Part shown: in pieces, positions 16,611 to 48,913 of the stretch
How positions within the stretch are numbered: the first letter of the stretch is position 1
How the letters are laid out: each line of letters opens with the position of its first letter
Source of the DNA: an uncultured Acidobacteriaceae bacterium
Lineage (GTDB): Bacteria; Acidobacteriota; Terriglobia; Terriglobales; Acidobacteriaceae
Direction of reading: 5' to 3'
Length of the DNA: 64,000 nucleotides
NCBI GenBank assembly: GCA_963729555.1
Contig: CAVSOH010000010.1
Location: 1,860-65,859, forward strand
The notes under the pieces: generated by a model
Databases searched by the model: none
Seen by the model: the letters and a program-made list of their open reading frames with translations, nothing else
Told to the model about the DNA's origin: nothing
Position numbers and translations under genes: made by a program

Positions 16611-16856
16611 TTACGTGGAAAAAAGGTTCGGTGGCGGTGTCCGCAAAGGTTCTCCCTTGACGCCGCTCTGGTGCCGGGGACAGCGGCGCAGGTGAATATC
16701 TTTGCCCGCGGAACCATAATCGTGGCTGCAATGGCTGCAGCGCATGTGGTAAATCGTCTGTCCGGGGAAGGATTCCGAGGGAAAACCGGTCCTGGCGATG
16801 ACGATTTGGCCGTGTTTGTTCTTATATCCGGGGTCTGTGGTCTGAAAACGAGTCAT
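16611..16856 (-). CDS. Small zinc-finger hypothetical protein, third gene of the TA operon
   Basis: ATG overlaps the doc stop (ATGA); CSHC...CPRH. Confidence 0.7.
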   Translation of the reverse strand: MTRFQTTDPGYKNKHGQIVIARTGFPSESFPGQTIYHMRCSHCSHDYGSAGKDIHLRRCPRHQSGVKGEPLRTPPPNLFST

Positions 16857-17248
16857 TTTTCCAAGGGAACAGCGTGCTGGGTGAACCAGGCGGCTAACCC
16901 CTCTTCGCTCAGGGAGCCGTCGGCCAAGTGCAGAAAGGTAAAGTACTTCTCTTCAGGCGTCGAAACAACCCTCAGGCCATTCAGGCGCAGAAAGCCTTCG
17001 GAGATGACCAGAGCCGTGCGCTTATTTCCATCGATGAAGGCGTGGTTTCGCGCCAGCCCGAAGGCGTAGGAGGCCGCAAGTCGCGGAAGGGTCGGATCAT
17101 CGGCATATGCGAAGACATTGCGCGGCTTGGACAGCGCCGAGTCGAGAAGAGCCTCATCGCGAAGGCCATCCGATCCGCCGTGCTCCGCCAGCTGCCTTGA
17201 ATGAACGACTAGAACCTCTGGCTTATCAATCCAGATCGGCTCGTCCAC
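16853..17248 (-). CDS. doc: Death-on-curing (Doc/Fic family) type II toxin
   Basis: HGGSDGLRDEALLDSAL...HAFIDGNKRTA. Confidence 0.93.
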   Translation of the reverse strand: MDEPIWIDKPEVLVVHSRQLAEHGGSDGLRDEALLDSALSKPRNVFAYADDPTLPRLAASYAFGLARNHAFIDGNKRTALVISEGFLRLNGLRVVSTPEEKYFTFLHLADGSLSEEGLAAWFTQHAVPLEK

Positions 17249-17475
17249 TATTCCGCCAGTTTCTTCAGAACATCGCGATTTTCCCGCATCACGTGTTCGA
17301 ACGCGTCGAGCTTATCTGCGAACGAAGCAGTATACGGGGTCAGGCGAACCCCATCCGGCGCTTCCGTGAAGTAGACCGTATCGCCCTTTTCGACATGAAG
17401 CCGGTTCAGGATCTCTTTCGGCAAAATGACCCCTACCGAATTCCCAATGGAGATGATTTTGGCTGCGGTTGCCAT
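17248..17475 (-). CDS. AbrB/MazE/SpoVT family antitoxin
   Basis: KIISIGNSVGVILPKEIL...VEKGDTVYF; stop overlaps the doc start. Confidence 0.9.
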   Translation of the reverse strand: MATAAKIISIGNSVGVILPKEILNRLHVEKGDTVYFTEAPDGVRLTPYTASFADKLDAFEHVMRENRDVLKKLAE

Positions 17476-35797: not shown

Positions 35798-36088
35798 TTA
35801 CTGTATGCGGACGGTGGTGCGGATCTGGAACGTCGAGCTGTTTGCGAGAACGTAGTGGCCGTCAACCATACGCCATTCGTAACCCCGCGGTGGTGCACTC
35901 AGATGGCTTTGGTGATAATCGACTTTATCGCCGCGATCCCAGTCTTCGTGTTTGATCGATGCACCTTTCTTCCAGTCGTTGTGCTCGACGTACGTGTGGT
36001 TGTCGTGGTGGTCTTGGGAGAGAGCGACGCGACCCATAAGACTTGTAGAAAGGATCGCAAGCGCTAAAACAATATGCAAGTTTTTCAT
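35798..36088 (-). CDS. RcnB family periplasmic protein
   Basis: Signal peptide; WKKG...DY...LSAPPRGYEWRMVDGHYVL. Confidence 0.85.
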   Translation of the reverse strand: MKNLHIVLALAILSTSLMGRVALSQDHHDNHTYVEHNDWKKGASIKHEDWDRGDKVDYHQSHLSAPPRGYEWRMVDGHYVLANSSTFQIRTTVRIQ

Positions 36089-36603
36089 TAAGTACTCCTT
36101 CCTCAGTAGGATGCACGAAAGACACGTCGCGTCGTTCGTATTCTGATTGGATACAGGCATTCGGAACCCACGATGTATTGCGAAGCTTCGGACTTGAATT
36201 CGGCATTGGCTTTGACTCCTGAATCTCGTTTATCGGGAACTTCAGTTTCTCAGTTCGTGCAAAGGTCTGTTGCTACCGCAAACTGACGCAAGCGCGGTTT
36301 TCAGGACGTACTGTCTATGCAAAGGGACCGATAGAAGTGCAAAGCGGCGCCAGCATCAACACAACGAACGCGGCTATCCCGTAAGTACGTAAAGCACTCG
36401 GGGCCATAGAAGAGAGCGATGGACCAGGGCCGATTTCAACGCCGGTAAATATATAATGTTGCCAGTACGCGCGCTGCAAATGAAGCTCTCACCTGCCGGA
36501 ATAAAAAACCAGGAAACTGCGGACCAATAATTCCCTTAGAATCGCGGGCCGCAGCTCACGGTCACAGGCAAGTGGAGGTGGCCCTTCACGACTGAGACGG
36601 CGT

Positions 36604-38316
36604 ATGAGCGAACAACCTGCCGCTTTTGACCGCGTAACCCTTCGGCGATTCGTCCGCGCAATCAAGGACTTGTTCACGTCCGAAGTGCGCTGGAAAGCGC
36701 GGGGCCTTTTCGCATTACTCATCGCCTTCGCTTTGGCTGTGAATGGCCTGAACGTCCTCAACAGCTTTGTCGGCCGCGACTTCTTTACGGCGATCGCACA
36801 CCGCGACCAGGCCGGATTCGTCCGGGAAGCGATTTTCTTCGTCTCCGTACTCGCCGCAACCACCGTGGTAGCAGTTTTTTACCGATTTACCGAGGAACGG
36901 CTTGGGCTATTCTGGCGGGTATGGCTGACGGAACGAATCATCCATAAATACCTCGCGGATCGCACTTATCTTTACCTCAAGCAGTCCGCCGCAATTGAAA
37001 ATCCTGACCAGCGGATCGCCGAAGAAGTTCGCGTCTTCACGGCCACTACTCTCTCTTTCACGCTTATGTTCATGAATGGAGTACTCGCCGTCCTATCGTT
37101 CTCGGGTGTGCTCTGGACAATCAGCCCGCTTCTATTCGGTGTCGCGATCGGCTACGCCATCATCGGCACTGTGGTCGCGGTCTATTTGGGTCGGCCCCTG
37201 ATCGGGCTGAATTACCGCCAGTCGGACCAGGAGGCCGCATTCCGCTCGGAGTTGATCCACGTACGCGAGAATGGCGAGTCAATCGCGCTCTTGCGGCGTG
37301 AGGGGCGTTTAACTACCCGACTTCTTCGACGCATCGAAGCCGTTGCGGACAACTTTCGAAGGATCACCTCGGTAAACCGCAACCTCAGCTTCTTCACGAC
37401 CGGTTACAACAATCTCATCCAGCTCATCCCCGCACTGATCGTGGCACCGCTATTCATTCGCGGGAAAGTGGAATTCGGTGTCATCACGCAATCGGCGGCC
37501 GCCTTCGCCCAACTGCTCGGCGCATTCTCGTTGGTCGTTAATCAATTTCAAGCCATCTCGACGTTTGCGGCTGTCACTGCCCGGCTCAGCTCGCTGGTGG
37601 GAGCCGTCGACGACCGTCCGTCACCAACCGGCACTACGGTCGAAGTCGTTGGAGCGGACGACCGCATTGCTTACGACGGCCTGACACTGTTCTCGCCCGA
37701 CGGAGGCCGAGAGGTCCTCAAAAACCTGACCGCGGAGATACGCCGCGGGACAAATGTGTTGGTCGTCGGACCGAACGAAGGCGCTAGAATCGCTCTGTTT
37801 CGAGCTACTGCCAGCATCTGGCCGGCTGTGGAAGGGACGCTCGTCCGCCCGAAGCTCGACGACATTTTCTTCCTGCCCCAGCGACCATATCTGCCACCAG
37901 GAACACTTCGGGATGTTCTGGTTCGCAGCGGTCAGGAACAGGTCATCACCGACGGTCAGATCACGAGCGCCTTGCAAGATATAGGTCTAAGCTCCATTCA
38001 GGAGCGGGTTGGTGGATTGGACACGGAACGCGATTGGTCGACCCTCCTTTCGTTGGGGCAGCAACATCTGCTTGCTTTAACGCGGCTGATCTTCGCACGA
38101 CCCGCCTTCGCCCTGCTTGATCGAGTAACTGAGCCCCTCAAACCAGCACAGTTACGAGAGATATTGCGGCGTTTCGATGAAAACTCCATTACCTACATAA
38201 CTTTCGCCAACGATGCCGAATCGGTTGAGTCGTACGACGCAGTGCTGGAAATCGACAACGATGGCGGATGGACCTGGAGTCCCACCGGCCGCGTTGCCAC
38301 TGCGGCATCGATGTAA
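36604..38316 (+). CDS. ABCD/YddA-type ABC transporter (TMD+NBD fusion) with degenerate ATPase domain
   Basis: TMD motifs NPDQRIAEEVR, FRSELIHVRENGESIALLR; NBD retains FLPQRPYLPPGTLRD but Walker A is GPNEGARI and Walker B is LLDRV. Confidence 0.88.
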   Translation: MSEQPAAFDRVTLRRFVRAIKDLFTSEVRWKARGLFALLIAFALAVNGLNVLNSFVGRDFFTAIAHRDQAGFVREAIFFVSVLAATTVVAVFYRFTEERLGLFWRVWLTERIIHKYLADRTYLYLKQSAAIENPDQRIAEEVRVFTATTLSFTLMFMNGVLAVLSFSGVLWTISPLLFGVAIGYAIIGTVVAVYLGRPLIGLNYRQSDQEAAFRSELIHVRENGESIALLRREGRLTTRLLRRIEAVADNFRRITSVNRNLSFFTTGYNNLIQLIPALIVAPLFIRGKVEFGVITQSAAAFAQLLGAFSLVVNQFQAISTFAAVTARLSSLVGAVDDRPSPTGTTVEVVGADDRIAYDGLTLFSPDGGREVLKNLTAEIRRGTNVLVVGPNEGARIALFRATASIWPAVEGTLVRPKLDDIFFLPQRPYLPPGTLRDVLVRSGQEQVITDGQITSALQDIGLSSIQERVGGLDTERDWSTLLSLGQQHLLALTRLIFARPAFALLDRVTEPLKPAQLREILRRFDENSITYITFANDAESVESYDAVLEIDNDGGWTWSPTGRVATAASM

Positions 38317-38394
38317 CCGGCGACGCGTCGAGCTTCCGATTGCTCGGCGAGGCTCATTGACCGCTCCAGCTAACTAGCCTTGCGCCCGTGAAGT

Positions 38395-38441
38395 CGGGTT
38401 TGCGGCAAGTTCGGTGGCGAAGTTGCCGCAAACCCGTTTTT
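38395..38441 (+). terminator. Long terminator hairpin
   Basis: CGGGTTTGCGGCAA-gTTCG-GTGG-CGAAg-TTGCCGCAAACCCG followed by TTTTT. Confidence 0.7.
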
Positions 38442-38790
38442 CGTGCACTACAAAGTGACAAGCCCCAACGTTAGGATTGTTCCCGGTTTGTCGACTACTC
38501 GTCCGGAACTCGTACAAAGGTTGGCGTCGCGCCTCCACCACCCCTTCGAAAACATGCGCACCGGCCTCTACGCCATCTACCAGCGAGTAGCCCTCCATGC
38601 CCCCACCACCAAAACAAGGGTTGGCCATCGAAGCTGTGACGGCTAGGCGATTAGTTCCTGTGCTTGGTTGTTGCTCATGGGGTTTGGTCCCTAGTCTTTT
38701 GCCATCGATTGTCGGGCGTGGGCTGTTCTCACAGGCAGGACTTGGCCCTGGATCATGCCGGCGAGGGTGGCAAGCGCGAGTGGAGGGGGA

Positions 38791-39738
38791 TTAACGGGAA
38801 TCTGCCGCATGGCCCGCTCCGTGGGTCGAAGATGACGGGTGCTCGTCGATCGCGCCCGGAGTTCCCGGCTGACTTACGGTAGCACCTGGCGGTGATGCCC
38901 ATTGGAGCCGGCCCTTGCTATTCGCGATTTCCTCTACAACTCTTGTGAACAACTGATCTTGCATGGCGATTCGTTTCGTGTAGTCGACCACGTAGCTGAC
39001 GGTGAATTCTAACGATCCCGCATTTACAACAAGAGCGACGATAGGGTCCAATGGAGGGTTTGTGCTTTGATAGTTGTCACTCATCGCTTTCCAGGAGGTC
39101 TGCGCCTCGACCAGATACTCGCCGATCGCCTCCTTAGCTACCCGCAAAAGCATCTCCTTAGCAAGCTGGAAATCGCTGGTGGTTGTAAGCAACACCTTAA
39201 TCTCGTCCCAGATAAAATGGAATCCTTGCGAGTAGTTGAAAACCGATCCTTTCAAGACAGTGCTGTTGGGGATGCGAACGATCCGGCCGTTGTACAAGTC
39301 CTTGCTGACCCAGTTCCCGGTTTCTAGCAAGGTGGTTCGCAGGAGTCCGATGTCGATCACGTCGCCTCGAGTATCGCCGATCTGAACTCTGTCTCCCACG
39401 GCGTATAGCTTCGAGAAGCCGATTGAGAAAGCGCCAGCAATGCTGGCGAGCACGTCCTGCAGGGCTACTGCCACACCCGCACCTGCGACGCCGAAGGCAA
39501 AGCTGAGGCGGGCTAAGCGATCCTCAAAGAGAATGGCAAGGAAAAGGAGAATCGAGAGGTATCCGGAAAAGACGACGAATTTGCGAACCTTATACCGCGC
39601 ATCGGCTCGGCCAAAGCGCCGAGGCAGTGTTTGTTCGAGCACGCGAAACGTGGCGTGAATACAGAGAATTCCGATAACTGCGGCCACGCACTTCCCGAGG
39701 AGCGAAAGCGAAACATCCGGTTTCAAAAGATCATGCAT
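38791..39738 (-). CDS. Small-conductance mechanosensitive channel (MscS family)
   Basis: GVAGAGVAVALQDVLASIAG...VGDRVQI...GDVIDIGLLRT...VRIPNS. Confidence 0.9.
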   Translation of the reverse strand: MHDLLKPDVSLSLLGKCVAAVIGILCIHATFRVLEQTLPRRFGRADARYKVRKFVVFSGYLSILLFLAILFEDRLARLSFAFGVAGAGVAVALQDVLASIAGAFSIGFSKLYAVGDRVQIGDTRGDVIDIGLLRTTLLETGNWVSKDLYNGRIVRIPNSTVLKGSVFNYSQGFHFIWDEIKVLLTTTSDFQLAKEMLLRVAKEAIGEYLVEAQTSWKAMSDNYQSTNPPLDPIVALVVNAGSLEFTVSYVVDYTKRIAMQDQLFTRVVEEIANSKGRLQWASPPGATVSQPGTPGAIDEHPSSSTHGAGHAADSR

Positions 39739-39940
39739 CTAACCACCACCAATCTCGGTTTGCTGCTACAGTGTGAAGTAAGACTATTGAACGTCAATGC
39801 CTTCGAACAACCGCGGTTTCTGATTCACGGGCGCTCGCCTCACTCTTGATCGATCCCTGCCTAGCGTCGAGTTCGGAAATCTCACTTCGTCGGCTCAAAC
39901 TGATCTGCCACCCGTTGCACTTGCCGTTGTTAGTTTTAGT

Positions 39941-39990
39941 CGTCATTCTGACCCTGAGCGATGCCGAAGGGGAAGAACCACCGGATTCGC
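39941..39990 (+). repeat. REP-like repeat family A, copy 2
   Basis: CGTCATTCTGACCCTGAGCGATGCCGAAGGGGAAGAACCACCGG. Confidence 0.85.
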
Positions 39991-40048
39991 CTTTGCGTTT
40001 GTCTTCTACTCCCTACCCCCTACCCCCTACTCTCTATACCCTATCTTC

Positions 40049-40396
40049 ATGCCCGCCAAAATCATCTCCACCACCACCGCCGAGCACTACACCTGGGGCA
40101 ACAACTGCGACGGTTGGCACCTCGTCAAGACCCCCGACCTCAGCGTCATCGAAGAGTTAATGCCACCCGGCACCAGCGAAACCCGTCATCATCACACGCG
40201 CTCTCGCCAGTTCTTCTACGTCCTCCAGGGCGAATTCACCATAGAGATCGAGCATCACGACTTCACCCTCAAGGCAGGCGAGGGAATCGAGATCGCCCCT
40301 GGCCAATCTCATCAAGCCATGAACCGGAGCGCCGCCCCAGTCCGCATCGTCGTCACCAGCCAACCCCCCAGCCACGGCGACCGCATCGACGACTAG
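40049..40396 (+). CDS. Cupin domain protein
   Basis: EELMPPG...HHHTRSRQFFYVLQGE...PGQSHQ. Confidence 0.9.
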   Translation: MPAKIISTTTAEHYTWGNNCDGWHLVKTPDLSVIEELMPPGTSETRHHHTRSRQFFYVLQGEFTIEIEHHDFTLKAGEGIEIAPGQSHQAMNRSAAPVRIVVTSQPPSHGDRIDD

Positions 40397-40465
40397 CCCT
40401 TCCCACAAAGGTCATCGCACCCACGTGTCGGCAGATCTCAGTCCGCGTCTTTTTTCCAGAAGAAA

Positions 40466-40575
40466 TCCACAGAAATATTTTCAAAAGTTGGCATGATGAC
40501 AACGGTTAAATTAAGACCCGCCAATCGCCACCAACCAACCAGGCTTGCCACACATTTCACCGCTAAGTGACCACA
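40466..40575 (+). repeat. Intergenic repeat family C, copy 1
   Basis: TCCACAGAAATATTT (15/15) and ACCAG..TTGCCAC.C.TT.CACCGCTAAGT.ACCACA match the reverse complement of 50598-50696. Confidence 0.75.
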
Positions 40576-40663
40576 GAAAACGGCCAAAGCTCTCCCAACC
40601 CCCTCAAATTTCGCCCAAAAGCCGCGAAATCCCCTCCGGAGCCACGCCGCAAAAAAAGGGCGC

Positions 40664-41059
40664 TTATTTTCCCGTATCGATCTTCAGATTGATCACAAAC
40701 TGGTTCTTGGTATCGAACGAGCTGATCGTCTTCACCGGGCTCTTCTTGCCGTTGCTCTCGGCCCAAAGCTCATAGTCGGTATTCTGCGACAGCTGCCCAA
40801 AACGATACCCACCCTGATCATCCGAGATAAAGCTCTTCACACCAAGCGAACGCCCGTCCTTCAGGTACACCACCGCACCCTTGATGGCCGCCTCGCTCTT
40901 ATCAATCACCTTTCCCTGCACCACCCGCTGCACAGGCCCACGCTGCTGCCCACCGAACAACTGTGCTGCTGGAGCATTCATGGAGAACATCGCGAACGAA
41001 CAGGACAGAACAACCAACCTGCAGGCAAGAGAACCAACCACAAAAGAAGAACGCTTCAT
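40664..41059 (-). CDS. Secreted carboxypeptidase-like regulatory domain protein
   Basis: RVVQGKVIDKSEAAIKGAVVYLKD...GGYRFGQL...DYELWAE. Confidence 0.85.
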   Translation of the reverse strand: MKRSSFVVGSLACRLVVLSCSFAMFSMNAPAAQLFGGQQRGPVQRVVQGKVIDKSEAAIKGAVVYLKDGRSLGVKSFISDDQGGYRFGQLSQNTDYELWAESNGKKSPVKTISSFDTKNQFVINLKIDTGK

Positions 41060-41097
41060 ATGGTCCAGTATACGGCTACCCTTTGGAATAGCTATGT

Positions 41098-41298
41098 TTA
41101 CTCATCATCCTCTTCGCCCAGATGCGCCGGATCCTCATCGTCATAACCGGCCTCTTCCATCGGCGCCAACTCTAACGGGTCGATTCCCACAACCTCCAGA
41201 TCGATGCCACACTCCTCGCACTGGAGCGTATCGCCCTCTTCGACCTCTTCCACGTCAATATCCAGCGGATTATCGCACTCAGGACACACAACAGGCAT
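41098..41298 (-). CDS. LysW-like acidic zinc-ribbon protein (amino-group carrier protein fold)
   Basis: CPEC...[23 protein letters not shown]; SD GGAGG. Confidence 0.85.
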
Positions 41299-41454
41299 AA
41301 TCAGACCTCCAAAAACTTTTGGTTCACTGCCGGCCTATAGGATGATAGGAACGGCACTCGCGGACGCATCCGCTATTCTTTTATCGGCCATACCGCCGCC
41401 ACGTCAAGCTTACGATTTTTTGAGCACTCAGGTTTCCACAAAAGGACGATCATC

Positions 41455-42987
41455 GTGACCATCGCATCCCGCTCCCTTGCTACTTTCAGCCGCCTCCTGT
41501 TGGCATCCCTATTCACTCCAGCGCTCCTGCAAGCCCAGCAAATAGGTGCGCCCATCACCCCAGCCCCCGTTGATCCGGTCATCGCTCAGGCCCTGCAGCA
41601 GGTCTCTGCCGACCACATCCGCGCCACCATAGAAAAATTAGTCTCCTTCAATAACCGCAGCACCCTCTCCAGCATGGAGACCGATCTGCCAGCCAACACA
41701 GGAGTCAGCGCCGCCGCCGACTGGATCGAGTCCGAGTTCAAGCGCATCTCCGCCGACTGCAACAACTGCCTCGAAGTCAAACGCGACGACTTCATCGAGC
41801 CGCCCCAGTCCGGCCCCGCCTCGCGCATCCTCAAGCCCACCAAACTCACCAACGTCTACGCTATCCTGCGTGGCACCGATCCCGCACAAGCCAACCGCAA
41901 AGTCCTCGTCACCGGCCATTACGACTCCCGCAACTCCGATAACTTCAACACCCACGATGCCGCACCCGGCGCCAACGACGACGCCAGCGGCGTAGCCGTC
42001 TCCATCGAGTGCGCCCGCGTCCTCTCCAAACTTAAATTCCCAAGCAGCATCGTCTTCGTCGCCGTCGCCGGTGAGGAGCAGGGTCTCAACGGCAGCCGCC
42101 ACCTCGCCAAACTCGCCAGGTCCGAAGGCTGGCAGCTCGAAGCCGTCCTCAACAACGACATCGTTGGCGGCGACACCACCCCCGGCGAGACCATGCAGGA
42201 CAAGACCGCCGTCCGCGTCTTCTCTGAAGGTGTACCCGGCAACGCAACGATCGAGCAACTCCACGCCATCCAGACTCTGGGAGCCGAAAACGACTCTCCC
42301 TCCCGCGAACTTGCCCGTGTCGTCTCCGACATCGGCGCCACATACTTCACCGCCTCACCGCACCGCGTCGCCGAGGGTACGCCGGCGGGCCGCCCCCGCA
42401 GCAACCTCGTCCACCTCGAGCCCGCCTTCCACCCCGTGCTTATCTTCCGTCGCGACCGTTACCTCCGCGGCGGCGACCACACCAGTTTCAATCTCGAAGG
42501 CTTCCCCGCCGTCCGCTTTACCGAGTGGCGTGAGAACTTCAACCATCAGCACCAGAACGTCCGTGTCGAAAATGGCACCCAGTACGGCGACCTCCTCCAG
42601 TACGTCGACTTCAACTACGTCGCTAACGTGGCCCGCCTCAACGCCGCGACCCTTGCGACTCTCGCCTCAGCCCCCGGTTCTCCGCAAAACGTTCACGTCC
42701 TGACTGCTGCGCTCGACAACAATACCGAACTCACATGGACCGCCCCCGCCGGTATGCCCGCAGGTGCAACCTACGAGATCGTCTGGCGCAACACGGAAGA
42801 CCCCACCTGGACCATGTCGCTCAACGCCGGCTCTGCAACCAGCATCAAACTGCCTATCTCCAAAGACAACGTCGTCTTCGGAGTCCGTTCGGTCAGTCAG
42901 ACCGGCCACCGCAGCCTCGCTGTCCTCCCCACGCCCAGCCGTCCAACACGGGACTTCGCCCGGCCGCAGACACCGCCTAAGTCGTAG
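41455..42987 (+). CDS. M28 family metallopeptidase, secreted, with C-terminal Fn3-like domain
   Basis: GHYDSR, PGANDDASG, AGEEQG, NNDIVG, RGGDH, HQH. Confidence 0.9.
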   Translation: MTIASRSLATFSRLLLASLFTPALLQAQQIGAPITPAPVDPVIAQALQQVSADHIRATIEKLVSFNNRSTLSSMETDLPANTGVSAAADWIESEFKRISADCNNCLEVKRDDFIEPPQSGPASRILKPTKLTNVYAILRGTDPAQANRKVLVTGHYDSRNSDNFNTHDAAPGANDDASGVAVSIECARVLSKLKFPSSIVFVAVAGEEQGLNGSRHLAKLARSEGWQLEAVLNNDIVGGDTTPGETMQDKTAVRVFSEGVPGNATIEQLHAIQTLGAENDSPSRELARVVSDIGATYFTASPHRVAEGTPAGRPRSNLVHLEPAFHPVLIFRRDRYLRGGDHTSFNLEGFPAVRFTEWRENFNHQHQNVRVENGTQYGDLLQYVDFNYVANVARLNAATLATLASAPGSPQNVHVLTAALDNNTELTWTAPAGMPAGATYEIVWRNTEDPTWTMSLNAGSATSIKLPISKDNVVFGVRSVSQTGHRSLAVLPTPSRPTRDFARPQTPPKS

Positions 42988-43040
42988 CCGACCAAGCCAG
43001 GATCCATACAGCTATGGTGAAATAGAAGCGGAAGGAAACC

Positions 43041-43868
43041 ATGCCCCGTTCCGGTCCCATCACGATGGCACTGCCGCCCTTCGCGGGCACAGTGCGAAAG
43101 CTGATCTTCCTCAACGTCGGCGCCTTCTTCGCGCTAGCCATATTGTCCTGGCTTGCTCCACCAATCGCCGGATTTCTCCTCAGCCATCTCATCCTCGAAC
43201 CGCTGGCCGTGGTTCGAGGAGAGATCTGGCAGCTCTTCACCTACTCACTCGTGCAGCAGGGAATCCTCAGTGTTCTCTTCGGCATGCTCACCCTCTGGTT
43301 CACAGGCACGCTGCTCGAAGGAGCCTACGGCAGCCGCTGGCTCGCAGAGCTCTACTGGACCTCCGTCATCGGCGGAGCCATCATCGCCACCGCCATCACC
43401 TTCACCCATGTCTTCGGCTTGCGACCCGAAGTTGGCTCTGCGGGCGTCTGGGCTGGTGTCTTTGGCCTGCTCGTGGCCATTGCCATGCTCTTCGGCGACC
43501 AGGAATTCCTCCTCTGGTTCCTCATCCGCATCAAGGCGAAGTACCTCGTCGCCATCTACATCCTCATCGCCATCGCCGTCCTGCTCAAACAGGCCGACAG
43601 CTTCGGAGCCCTGCTGCAGCTTTCAGGCGCTCTCAGCGGCTATCTCTTCGTCAAGTTCGCGCCACGCCGAGGCATAGCCTTCGGTTTCAGCGAGCGCTTC
43701 TTCGGTCTGCGCAACGGCTACTACCGCTGGAAGCGCCGCCGCGCCGCCCGCAAGTTCGAGGTCTACATGCGCAAGCAAAACCGCGAAGTCCACTTCGACA
43801 AAGAAGGCCGCTACGTCGACCCCGACGAACTCCGCCGCGACCCCAAAGACAAACGCTGGATGAACTAG
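43041..43868 (+). CDS. Rhomboid-family membrane protein, probably catalytically inactive
   Basis: GEIWQLFTY, LEGAYG...FGLLVA...IKAKY; GxSG replaced by GVWAG and AHLGG by LQLSG. Confidence 0.82.
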   Translation: MPRSGPITMALPPFAGTVRKLIFLNVGAFFALAILSWLAPPIAGFLLSHLILEPLAVVRGEIWQLFTYSLVQQGILSVLFGMLTLWFTGTLLEGAYGSRWLAELYWTSVIGGAIIATAITFTHVFGLRPEVGSAGVWAGVFGLLVAIAMLFGDQEFLLWFLIRIKAKYLVAIYILIAIAVLLKQADSFGALLQLSGALSGYLFVKFAPRRGIAFGFSERFFGLRNGYYRWKRRRAARKFEVYMRKQNREVHFDKEGRYVDPDELRRDPKDKRWMN

Positions 43869-43902
43869 CGGATTCTCGCCTTTGCCGTTGGTCTTCTTGG
43901 TT

Positions 43903-43990
43903 GTCATCCCGTAGGGATCTGCTTTTGCCTTTGTTCGTCGTTCTGACCCTGAGCGAAGCCGAAGGGGAAGAACCCCCGCATTTCGCTTTT
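43903..43990 (+). repeat. REP-like repeat family A tandem: short form plus copy 3
   Basis: GTCATCCCGTAGGGATCTGC (43903-43922) followed by CGTCGTTCTGACCCTGAGCGAAGCCGAAGGGGAAGAACCCCCGCATTT (43936-43983). Confidence 0.85.
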
Positions 43991-44066
43991 GCTCTTGACC
44001 GTTCTCCACTCGCGATGAGCGTTTAGCTATATCTATTGCCGCAGTCCCATCGCGCTACGGCAATCG

Positions 44067-45911
<1,845 letters not shown>

Positions 45912-47831: not shown

Positions 47832-48036
47832 GCAGGCGATTTTACGCCCCCGAACCCATCTCGCCTTCGCCTCTATCCCATGAAAATCCCTCTGCGCCAC
47901 ATCAAAAATGCTAGGCAACTCAGGTTCCAGACCGTTAAAAATCGTTTTAGGTTACTAACATTCCATTTTATTTTTTCCACAATCGAGCGTATTCTTGTAT
48001 TTATCCCGATCAGGGAGTGGTTGGAGGTGTATTTCC

Positions 48037-48234
48037 GTGGCAGAGGTTCGAGTTCAAGAAGGCGAACCCCTTGAAAATGCCCTGCGGCGCTTTAAGCGCA
48101 AGGTGCAGACCGAAGACATTATCAAGGAAGTAAAGCGCCACTCTTTTTACCTGAAGCCAGGTGAGAAGAAGCGCGTGAAAGAAGCGCTCGCTCGTAAGCG
48201 CAATCGCAAGAAGGTACGCAAGGAACAGGACTAA
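48037..48234 (+). CDS. rpsU: 30S ribosomal protein S21
   Basis: GTG start after GGAGGT; LENALRRFKRKV...FYLKPGEKKR. Confidence 0.95.
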   Translation: MAEVRVQEGEPLENALRRFKRKVQTEDIIKEVKRHSFYLKPGEKKRVKEALARKRNRKKVRKEQD

Positions 48235-48511: not shown

Positions 48512-48913
48512 ATGGAATTTGTGGATAGGCTATTAACCTGTGCAGATTGCGGTGGAGAGTTTATCTTCACCGCCGGCGAACAACTCTTCTTTTTCGATAA
48601 ACAATTCAAGAACGACCCCAAGCGCTGCAAACCGTGCAAGTCCAAACGAGCCGGTGCAAGCATGCGTCCTGGCGCGGGTCCGGCTGCAGCTGGCCTCTCC
48701 CGTACCGAGACTCGCACCCACTGTTCCGAGTGCGGCATCGAGACCACCGTACCCTTCAAACCAACGCAGGGGCGTCCCGTCCTCTGCCGCCAGTGCTTCC
48801 AGAGCAAACGCGCTCCGGCTGTCGCTGCCGCAACCGCTGAACTGGTCGCCGCGGATCGAGCCCCGGTCAGTTCGGAATTGATCGCCGCAGCCGCCCAGGC
48901 CCCGCAGGCCTAG
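48512..48913 (+). CDS. Zinc-ribbon protein with CxxC-x17-CxxC domain
   Basis: LTCADCGGEFIFTAGEQ.FF...PKRCKPC and CSECG...VPFKP...RPVLCRQCF. Confidence 0.9.
   Translation: MEFVDRLLTCADCGGEFIFTAGEQLFFFDKQFKNDPKRCKPCKSKRAGASMRPGAGPAAAGLSRTETRTHCSECGIETTVPFKPTQGRPVLCRQCFQSKRAPAVAAATAELVAADRAPVSSELIAAAAQAPQA

Follow-up and report, generated by a model that had tools for sequence, protein, structure and literature searches.

A LysW-like acidic zinc-ribbon protein of the Terriglobia, probably not a canonical amino-group carrier, is encoded next to a small exported transthyretin-like protein

Contig CAVSOH010000010.1 of an uncultured Acidobacteriaceae bacterium contains, in the 64,000-nt stretch analyzed here (hereafter the window), a small gene for a very acidic protein of 66 aa whose zinc ribbon resembles that of LysW, an amino-group carrier protein (AmCP). 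We refer to them as the ribbon gene and the ribbon protein. Together with the next gene downstream, which encodes a small exported protein of Pfam family PF13620 (the partner), the ribbon gene forms a two-gene module, probably co-translated, that is class-wide in the Terriglobia (Acidobacteriota). The ribbon protein is probably not a canonical amino-group carrier, and the database label 'LysW' is probably wrong for it. No description of the acid-tailed LysW-like family, or of its pairing with a PF13620 protein, was found in the literature. The function of the family is undescribed there, and the pairing with the exported PF13620 protein is the main new finding.

The gene pair was defined as a LysW-like open reading frame (ORF) and, directly after it in the same orientation, a gene for a PF13620 protein of ~120-145 aa with a signal peptide; the pair in the window fits this definition. 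At 35 Acidobacteriaceae loci, the surrounding ORFs were clustered; these loci come from Edaphobacter, Tunturiibacter, Granulicella, Terracidiphilus, Occallatibacter and metagenome-assembled genomes (MAGs). In all 35 loci, a PF13620 gene lies directly downstream of the ribbon gene. The Acidobacteriaceae arrangement is a four-gene block consisting of a rhomboid gene, an M28 peptidase gene and, across a divergent spacer, the LysW-like gene and the small PF13620 gene. The same block is present in the cultured species E. bradus and E. aggregans, and the ribbon protein of E. aggregans is identical to that of the window at 62 of 66 residues. Among distant members of the family, five of seven (P0267, P0264, P0141, P0169 and P0151) again have PF13620 directly downstream, as one or two small genes. 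The flanks of these five loci are unrelated, and include PriA, Tad pilus genes, RmuC, ribosomal protein S1 and an M23 peptidase. The M28 peptidase and the rhomboid protease were considered as core functional partners and rejected: synteny with them is confined to the Acidobacteriaceae and is not seen in the distant lineages in which PF13620 is retained. Therefore, the PF13620 gene is the conserved partner. The two remaining distant members, P0205 (beside MagC/VWA) and P0225 (beside an unrelated 159-aa ORF), have no PF13620 neighbor, and neither do the LysW-like proteins with long acidic tails from Chloroflexota (L037 and L038). A preliminary description of this DNA, made from the sequence alone, had called the ribbon gene an orphan. 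This holds in the sense that no carrier-pathway genes adjoin it, but the term overlooks the strictly conserved gene at 40664-41059.

Further observations concern the two genes and their products. A terminator scan found no terminator-like site in the 38-nt spacer that separates them in the window. In many lineages, the stop codon of the first gene and the start codon of the second overlap, as ATGA, as GTGA or within an overlap of 10-41 nt. Moreover, an RNA-derived contig from one relative (88% identical) spans positions 40973-41226, which cover part of the partner gene, the spacer and part of the ribbon gene. This is consistent with a single transcript, although DNA carry-over is possible. The two products carry net charges of opposite sign in every lineage checked, ~-25 to -44 for the ribbon protein against +4 to +5 for the mature partner. 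As judged by eye, all partners have a signal peptide and the ribbon protein has none. Three apparent fusions of the two proteins (P0129, P0140 and P0237) were rejected as Rosetta-stone evidence, as these read-throughs resemble frameshifted metagenomic calls.

On its other side, the ribbon gene is separated from the M28 gene by a divergent spacer of 156 nt (41299-41454), conserved in position across the Acidobacteriaceae and covered completely by the metatranscriptome contig X21. A promoter scan, which is uninformative for this phylum, found no sigma-70-like promoter in this spacer. The Rfam scan of positions 38000-45000 returned nothing relevant upstream of the ribbon gene, neither a riboswitch nor another RNA element; the gene called 'lysW' in work on lysine riboswitches encodes an unrelated transporter. 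The Acidobacteriaceae-type block was also seen in three MAGs titled 'Verrucomicrobia bacterium Tous-C9LFEB' or 'uncultured Verrucomicrobiae' (L021, L022 and L024), with ribbon proteins 61-75% identical; these record titles are probably taxonomically wrong.

The partner matches the PF13620 (CarboxypepD_reg) profile with 38 bits (cut-off 32.3); no NCBIfam family names it. All its orthologues show, by eye, a basic n-region, a hydrophobic core and an AxA pattern. Arg-rich n-regions occur in some of them, yet no consistent twin-arginine motif could be seen by eye, and export by the twin-arginine translocation (Tat) route was rejected. In the AlphaFold2 model of the partner, the predicted local distance difference test score (pLDDT) is <50 for residues 1-39 and >90 for residues 45-127, and the mature protein of ~95 aa is predicted to form a beta-sandwich of 7-8 strands. 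In Foldseek, this model is matched best by the N-terminal extension (NTE) domain of the dextran transporter SusC-dex (9hfj, E 5e-6); carboxypeptidases D and N come next, with their transthyretin-like domains (3mn8 and 2nsm). The partner thus resembles these domains in its predicted beta-sandwich and in PF13620. However, it is a free-standing exported domain, with no transporter barrel or peptidase attached. In six proteins from distant lineages the mature partner is mildly basic, with an isoelectric point of ~9.5. In sister clades, two small PF13620 paralogues lie in tandem behind the ribbon gene (L045:8158-8993, L049:5792-6528 and L047:568-1410). The second paralogue is the orthologue of the partner in the window, and only this second type is kept in Acidobacteriaceae. 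At L049, the paralogues are followed by a thioredoxin-like gene and a HupE/UreJ-type gene.

The ribbon gene lies exactly where the preliminary description had placed it, and the length, the strong acidity and the final Glu of its product were also correctly given. The protein contains 26 Asp or Glu among 66 residues and no Lys or Arg. Its net charge is -26, of which -15 falls on residues 1-46 and the remainder on the tail. The GC content at the three codon positions (0.78/0.28/0.61) is in line with that of the other genes of the window. A search returned 917 homologues at E<=1e-3, nearly all of them 65-68 aa long. The ratio of nonsynonymous to synonymous substitution rates (dN/dS) is ~0.04-0.12 against eight orthologues, and is equally low (~0.1) in the domain and in the tail. 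Metatranscriptome contigs of close relatives from soil and rhizosphere cover the gene. That the ORF is a real, expressed gene under purifying selection is well supported.

The preliminary description had recognized a likeness to LysW, and this is borne out by profile and structure comparisons. Residues 4-49 match positions 2-46 of the 46-position Pfam profile PF21344 (Zn_ribbon_LysW) with 40.4 bits, against a cut-off of 27, and PF21344 is likewise the best match of the distant members P0045, P0484, P0390 and P0264. In a phmmer search of the PDB, LysW of Thermus thermophilus (3wwl) was matched with E 1.9e-8, and Thermococcus LysW was also matched. The AlphaFold2 model of the ribbon protein has a mean pLDDT of 76 (~82-88 over residues 1-40, ~85 over residues 1-46, ~52 over the tail) and three beta strands. 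Its six best Foldseek matches are all LysW chains; the best of them, T. thermophilus LysW 5eio_C, has a template modeling (TM) score of 0.85 on the target and a root-mean-square deviation of 1.3 A over 46 residues. Two other assignments were rejected. Rubredoxins appeared only at E>3 in Foldseek, and the aromatic core of these redox proteins is absent; the Trm112-like Pfam match is sub-threshold (20.5 against 22) and far weaker than that to LysW. With these profile matches and this predicted structure, the identification of residues 1-46 as a genuine LysW-fold Cys4 zinc ribbon is well supported, and so is the view that the family is a large Terriglobia group descended from the LysW carrier fold. 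Compared with LysW and ArgW of T. thermophilus, Sulfolobus and Thermococcus (3wwl, 5eio, 5k2m and 3vpb), the fold and the Cys4 ribbon are the same, ~47% of 46-53 aligned residues are identical, the core ...LEVVG.DPL.L is shared, and both proteins are strongly acidic and have, at the C-terminus, an acidic extension that is flexible. Apart from these single-ribbon proteins, eight others (P0123, P0149, P0159, P0192, P0194, P0204, P0231 and P0234) contain several LysW-like ribbons in tandem: two, three or as many as 12. The largest number of matched stretches, 12, is in P0123, a protein of 1052 aa. The tails of some multi-ribbon proteins are basic rather than acidic. It thus seems that LysW-like ribbons are used as building blocks far outside the carrier proteins.

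The features that define LysW and ArgW (TIGR01206, NF041070, KO K05826) are three to four zinc-binding Cys and a C-terminal EDWGE that ends in the attachment Glu, and EDWGE is recognized by the GSWGR motif of LysX and ArgX (PMC10433800). The ribbon protein has the Cys (CPEC and CEEC). It has no EDWGE, either in its own sequence or when aligned with canonical LysW. Instead, as the preliminary description had noted, there is a longer acidic tail, which contains no Trp and extends the protein by 11-12 residues. Both NCBIfam models for LysW score it below their cut-offs (34.8 bits against 53.2 for TIGR01206, 26.4 against 75 for NF041070). The terminal residue is Glu in 113 and Asp in 7 of the nearest 120 homologues. 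In a sister Terriglobia clade with the same gene pair (n=120), it is Ser in 53, Tyr in 48, Gly in 11, Ala in 3, Phe in 3 and Glu in only 2 proteins; the C-termini there read ...EDGDYS, ...EDSDY or ...DEDEG, and in other lineages ...DEWK, ...DEEA or ...DADY. A terminal Glu that could serve as the attachment site is thus not conserved across the family, which argues against a carrier and is one of the two outcomes that the preliminary description had named as refuting its proposal.

The gene neighborhoods point in the same direction. Three canonical EDWGE loci from the genome scan (L040, L041 and L044) were used as positive controls. In each of them, LysW is followed by one or two LysX-type ATP-grasp genes, by LysY and, where the contig reaches, by LysZ. 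With LysX, LysY and LysZ from these loci as queries (LysJ and LysK were not queried), tblastn found no match in the 64-kb window and none within +/-8-10 kb in the acid-tail loci (about 50). For these three genes, the earlier statement that no lysX/Z/Y/J/K gene is nearby is therefore confirmed. Since the Pfam scans covered ~20 of the ~55 ORFs of the window, the result for the window rests mainly on tblastn. A single ATP-grasp enzyme turned up in the window, namely PurD, beside an apparent purL and purF. The literature on the diaminopimelate versus the alpha-aminoadipate lysine pathway in Acidobacteriaceae yielded nothing usable. Unlike LysW and ArgW, whose genes adjoin LysX/ArgX, LysZ and LysY, the ribbon gene has a small exported PF13620 protein as its conserved neighbor. 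It is well supported that the family no longer has the carrier end EDWGE or a conserved terminal Glu, and that its link to LysX/Z/Y/J/K is gone. Of the two ideas put forward in the preliminary description, a carrier for a different ligase or pathway is disfavored by these data. The other, a repurposed acidic zinc ribbon, is supported in general terms and is made more specific by the conserved exported partner.

Two observations were made at the control loci. At L040:34-1901, two LysX-type ATP-grasp genes stand in tandem behind the EDWGE LysW. Their products are paralogues with 51% identity, possibly a LysX/ArgX pair that uses one carrier in common. At L044:9956-10135, a Trueperaceae LysW homologue ends in EDWGE and adjoins LysX, LysY and LysZ, yet has none of the four zinc-binding Cys as translated.

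A profile built from distant members collects >5,000 proteins, and those with named sources come from Sulfotelmatobacter, Terriglobales, Acidobacteriaceae and 'Acidobacteriales'. Thousands of them (for example, P0003-P0120 and P0390-P0509) are labeled 'alpha-aminoadipate(/glutamate) carrier protein LysW' in IMG/JGI, whereas NCBI calls them hypothetical. Given that EDWGE and LysX neighbors are both missing, the IMG name is probably a systematic mis-annotation. Outside the Acidobacteriota, the Chloroflexota LysW-like proteins at L037:6768-7052 (94 aa, net charge -40) and L038:10001-10408 (135 aa, -67) also have no LysX/Y/Z neighbor; the next ORF downstream at L038 encodes an unrelated 210-aa protein.

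The tail of the ribbon protein is far from random. The sequence GYDDE (G51-Y52-D53-D54-E55) is present in all 120 near homologues, with all five positions invariant in the alignment. Position 56 is Asp in 110 of 116 near homologues, and exactly 11 residues follow GYDDE in 116 of 120. In the nearest clade, the tail past position 56 reads x-x-[H/P/R]-hydrophobic (L/V/I/M/A)-x-[D/E]5. In sister clades, an aromatic residue is kept at the very end (EDGDY or EDSDY), and the shared pattern seems to be an acidic tail that carries a single anchor residue, aromatic or hydrophobic. The tail is a constrained linear motif and not random acid, as indicated by its fixed length, the invariant GYDDE, the hydrophobic position and dN/dS ~0.1. 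Fixed length and invariant GYDDE favor a specific docking partner over bulk charge. MAFFT places the canonical terminal ...EDWGE opposite ...GYDDE; with tails of such low complexity, this alignment is indicative only. It would make the ancestral terminal Glu the present internal, invariant E55, and the last 11 residues an extension. The canonical C-terminus appears, from these sequences, to have been remodeled into an internal G-Y-D-D-E-D followed by an extension of fixed length. At three loci with ATGA or GTGA overlaps (L058:440-480, L043:10170-10200 and L054:1135-1175), the GA-rich codons of the tail (GAGGAAGAAGA...) are also the Shine-Dalgarno-like sequence of the partner. There the tail codons double as a ribosome-binding site, so the tail DNA is under double constraint.

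How the pair may work can be suggested from what LysW does. The acidic globular domain of LysW docks on basic enzyme surfaces. Our favored but still tentative reading, somewhat less likely than not, is that the ribbon protein is a LysW-derived polyanionic partner that acts non-covalently, as an escort or regulator, on the exported PF13620 protein, in the way that the LysW domain acts on those enzymes. It would be made in step with the partner through translational coupling. In the cytoplasm, it would bind the basic precursor at the mature domain, at the basic n-region of the signal peptide, or at both. The binding surface would consist of the polyanionic body and the tail with its aromatic or hydrophobic anchor. 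The bound partner might be kept soluble, unfolded and export-competent, or inactive, until export by Sec; alternatively, its production might be tuned. The ribbon protein would then be released at the translocon and stay in the cytoplasm, and so would not serve to carry amino groups.

There are functional parallels to such an arrangement. Agrobacterium VirE1, which serves VirE2, and the class I type III secretion chaperones are small acidic export chaperones encoded next to their cargo. VirE1 and the ribbon protein are both small, very acidic cytoplasmic proteins whose genes adjoin and are coupled to that of a basic exported protein. Size, acidity, adjacency, coupling and opposite charge thus agree, circumstantially, with an export chaperone. 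On the other hand, there is no kinship in sequence or fold, the cargo has an ordinary Sec-type signal peptide and no specialized secretion system, and binding is putative here.

Several points weigh against an escort or regulator of this kind. First, the contact between the two proteins is one that we infer, and conserved adjacency can reflect co-regulation only. Second, since the two proteins come to lie in separate compartments, they could meet only transiently and before export; it would also be unusual for a single small Sec substrate to have a chaperone of its own. Third, acid-tailed LysW-like proteins occur without the partner (P0205, P0225 and L037/L038), and therefore the tail may serve a function independent of it. 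Fourth, the ribosome-binding site of the partner adds a non-protein constraint on the tail codons in overlapping arrangements. Finally, the ligase searches cover the window and the related loci, and an ATP-grasp ligase could be encoded elsewhere in the genome.

A more far-reaching version of the same idea is speculative and rather improbable. NTE-bearing TonB-dependent transporters dominate acidobacterial outer membranes. In Terriglobia, the amino-group-carrier fold may have been turned into a dedicated cytoplasmic escort, translationally coupled, or into an anti-folding or anti-activity factor, for a free-standing periplasmic NTE-like domain, which might in turn modulate such transporters. 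In an exotic variant, Glu55 or the tail end would be covalently modified by an unlinked ATP-grasp ligase.

The alternative that survives best, possible though doubtful, is that the ribbon protein is a free-standing cytoplasmic polyanion. It could act on basic or nucleic-acid-binding proteins, as their chaperone or as a decoy (a DNA or RNA mimic), or it could buffer cations such as Zn, Fe, Al or Ca, with the link to its neighbor reflecting only shared regulation. The net charge of -26 without any Lys or Arg, the predicted disorder of the tail, the existence of related acid-tailed proteins that have no PF13620 neighbor and the still longer tails in Chloroflexota all fit this explanation. However, the adjacency of the pair outlasts the complete turnover of the other neighbors, the frequent stop/start overlap is typical of proteins needed in a fixed ratio, and fixed tail length with an invariant GYDDE is not what bulk charge would call for. 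DNA- and RNA-mimic proteins present a rigid array of carboxylates in imitation of a phosphate backbone and bind a nucleic-acid-binding protein; the tail of the ribbon protein is predicted to be disordered.

It is quite unlikely that the ribbon protein is a true carrier variant that serves lysine, arginine or another pathway and receives an amino acid, on Glu66 or on the invariant Glu55, from an ATP-grasp ligase encoded elsewhere. In favor of it, the protein keeps the fold and the acidic surface of LysW, Glu ends the protein of the window and most near homologues, E55 is aligned with the canonical terminal Glu, and the ligase searches cover the window and the related loci. Against this stand the missing EDWGE, which the GSWGR motif of LysX/ArgX recognizes, the two sub-threshold NCBIfam scores, the Asp ends of 7 near homologues and the Ser, Tyr, Gly and Ala ends in sister clades with the same pair. 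In addition, no ATP-grasp, kinase, reductase or aminotransferase neighbors were found in ~50 loci, whereas canonical LysW loci always have them. LysW-like AmCPs that serve outside primary lysine and arginine synthesis do exist, in secondary-metabolite clusters of Streptomyces and others (PMC8346489). They share with the ribbon protein the small, acidic LysW-type build. Their clusters include ATP-grasp ligases and tailoring enzymes, and the carriers are taken to tether intermediates covalently; none of these genes is present at the ribbon locus.

Very unlikely, too, is the proposal that the tail is the substrate of a modifying ligase, lengthened or capped to tune binding, as by RimK on ribosomal protein S6, by tubulin tyrosine ligase or by polyglutamylases. 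RimK, an ATP-grasp relative of LysX, modifies the tail of S6. The ribbon protein resembles S6 as a small protein with a Glu/Asp-rich C-terminal tail, and its end (...EEDDE), like the ...[DE][DE]Y of sister clades, looks like known substrates of ATP-grasp enzymes that act on tails; LysX and RimK are also linked in evolution. Nevertheless, the ribbon protein is not ribosomal, no RimK-type or other ligase gene was found in the window or in the related loci, nothing in the data requires a modification, and the fixed tail length in the genomes suggests that the encoded tail is already the functional form. Last, a spurious ORF or a decayed remnant of a lost lysW gene, as the small size, the low-complexity acidic sequence and the NCBI label 'hypothetical' on homologues might suggest, can be dismissed in view of dN/dS ~0.1 in domain and tail, thousands of homologues of conserved length, a ribosome-binding site and RNA contigs over the gene.

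The coordinates of the pair and its flanking genes are listed in Table 1.

Table 1. Ribbon gene, partner gene and adjoining features, in positions of the 64,000-nt window
Feature	Position	Strand	Basis or remark
Partner gene, 131-aa precursor; small exported transthyretin-like (CarboxypepD_reg) protein	40664..41059	-	PF13620
Partner signal peptide, ~residues 1-31/33 (MKRSS..., hydrophobic core, A-P-A-A-Q)	40961..41059	-	judged by eye
Intergenic spacer of the pair, 38 nt	41060..41097	-	sequence; terminator scan
LysW-like acidic zinc-ribbon gene	41098..41298	-	ATG start, TAA stop, 66 aa + stop; ORF list and sequence
Acidic tail, residues 47-66, net charge -11	41101..41160	-	pLDDT ~52, predicted disordered
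G-Y-D-D-E-D motif, residues 51-56	41131..41148	-	aligned position of EDWGE in canonical LysW (indicative)
Globular domain with predicted LysW fold, residues 1-46	41161..41298	-	AlphaFold2 and Foldseek
Second zinc knuckle, C27-E-E-C30	41209..41220	-	sequence; C27 and C30 invariant in homologue alignment
First zinc knuckle, C5-P-E-C8	41275..41286	-	sequence; C5 and C8 invariant in homologue alignment
Shine-Dalgarno-like GGAGG	41306..41310	-	7 nt before ribbon-gene ATG; read from sequence
M28 metallopeptidase, secreted, divergently transcribed	41455..42987	+	PF04389, 93 bits; 34/35 loci
Rhomboid protease downstream of M28	43041..43868	+	PF01694; 33/35 loci

Some other genes of the window may be mentioned. 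A few kb from the pair are a gene for an RcnB-like periplasmic protein (PF11776) at 35798-36160 (-) and one for an SbmA/BacA-type ABC membrane protein at 36604-38316 (+); their adjacency is not conserved in other lineages. A second small Cys-rich metal-binding protein of the window has 133 aa and two treble-clef zinc fingers (PF13451 and PF23477), and is encoded at 48512-48913 (+), close downstream of the gene for ribosomal protein S21 (47995-48234). At 16853-17475 (-), a Fic/Doc toxin gene (131 aa, PF02661) directly follows a gene for a MazE/AbrB-type antitoxin (75 aa, PF04014), with a one-base overlap at 17248. They are likely a toxin-antitoxin pair, and are located between rpoD, predicted by eye, and dnaG, a primase gene confirmed by Pfam.

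The findings have a practical and a biological side. The probable LysW mislabel can lead to the aminoadipate lysine pathway being wrongly called in soil Acidobacteria and in metagenome reconstructions. The family also represents a second evolutionary fate of the LysW fold, a putative acidic docking module tied to an exported transthyretin-like protein in a dominant soil class. Cultured strains of Edaphobacter aggregans, E. bradus, Tunturiibacter and Occallatibacter carry the pair, so that its function is directly testable. A free-standing, universally conserved NTE-like protein with a cytoplasmic partner of its own is a possible handle on the role of NTE domains in TonB-dependent uptake. If true, an escort for a periplasmic NTE-like domain would mean that a metabolic carrier protein gave rise to an envelope module that is class-wide and previously undescribed.

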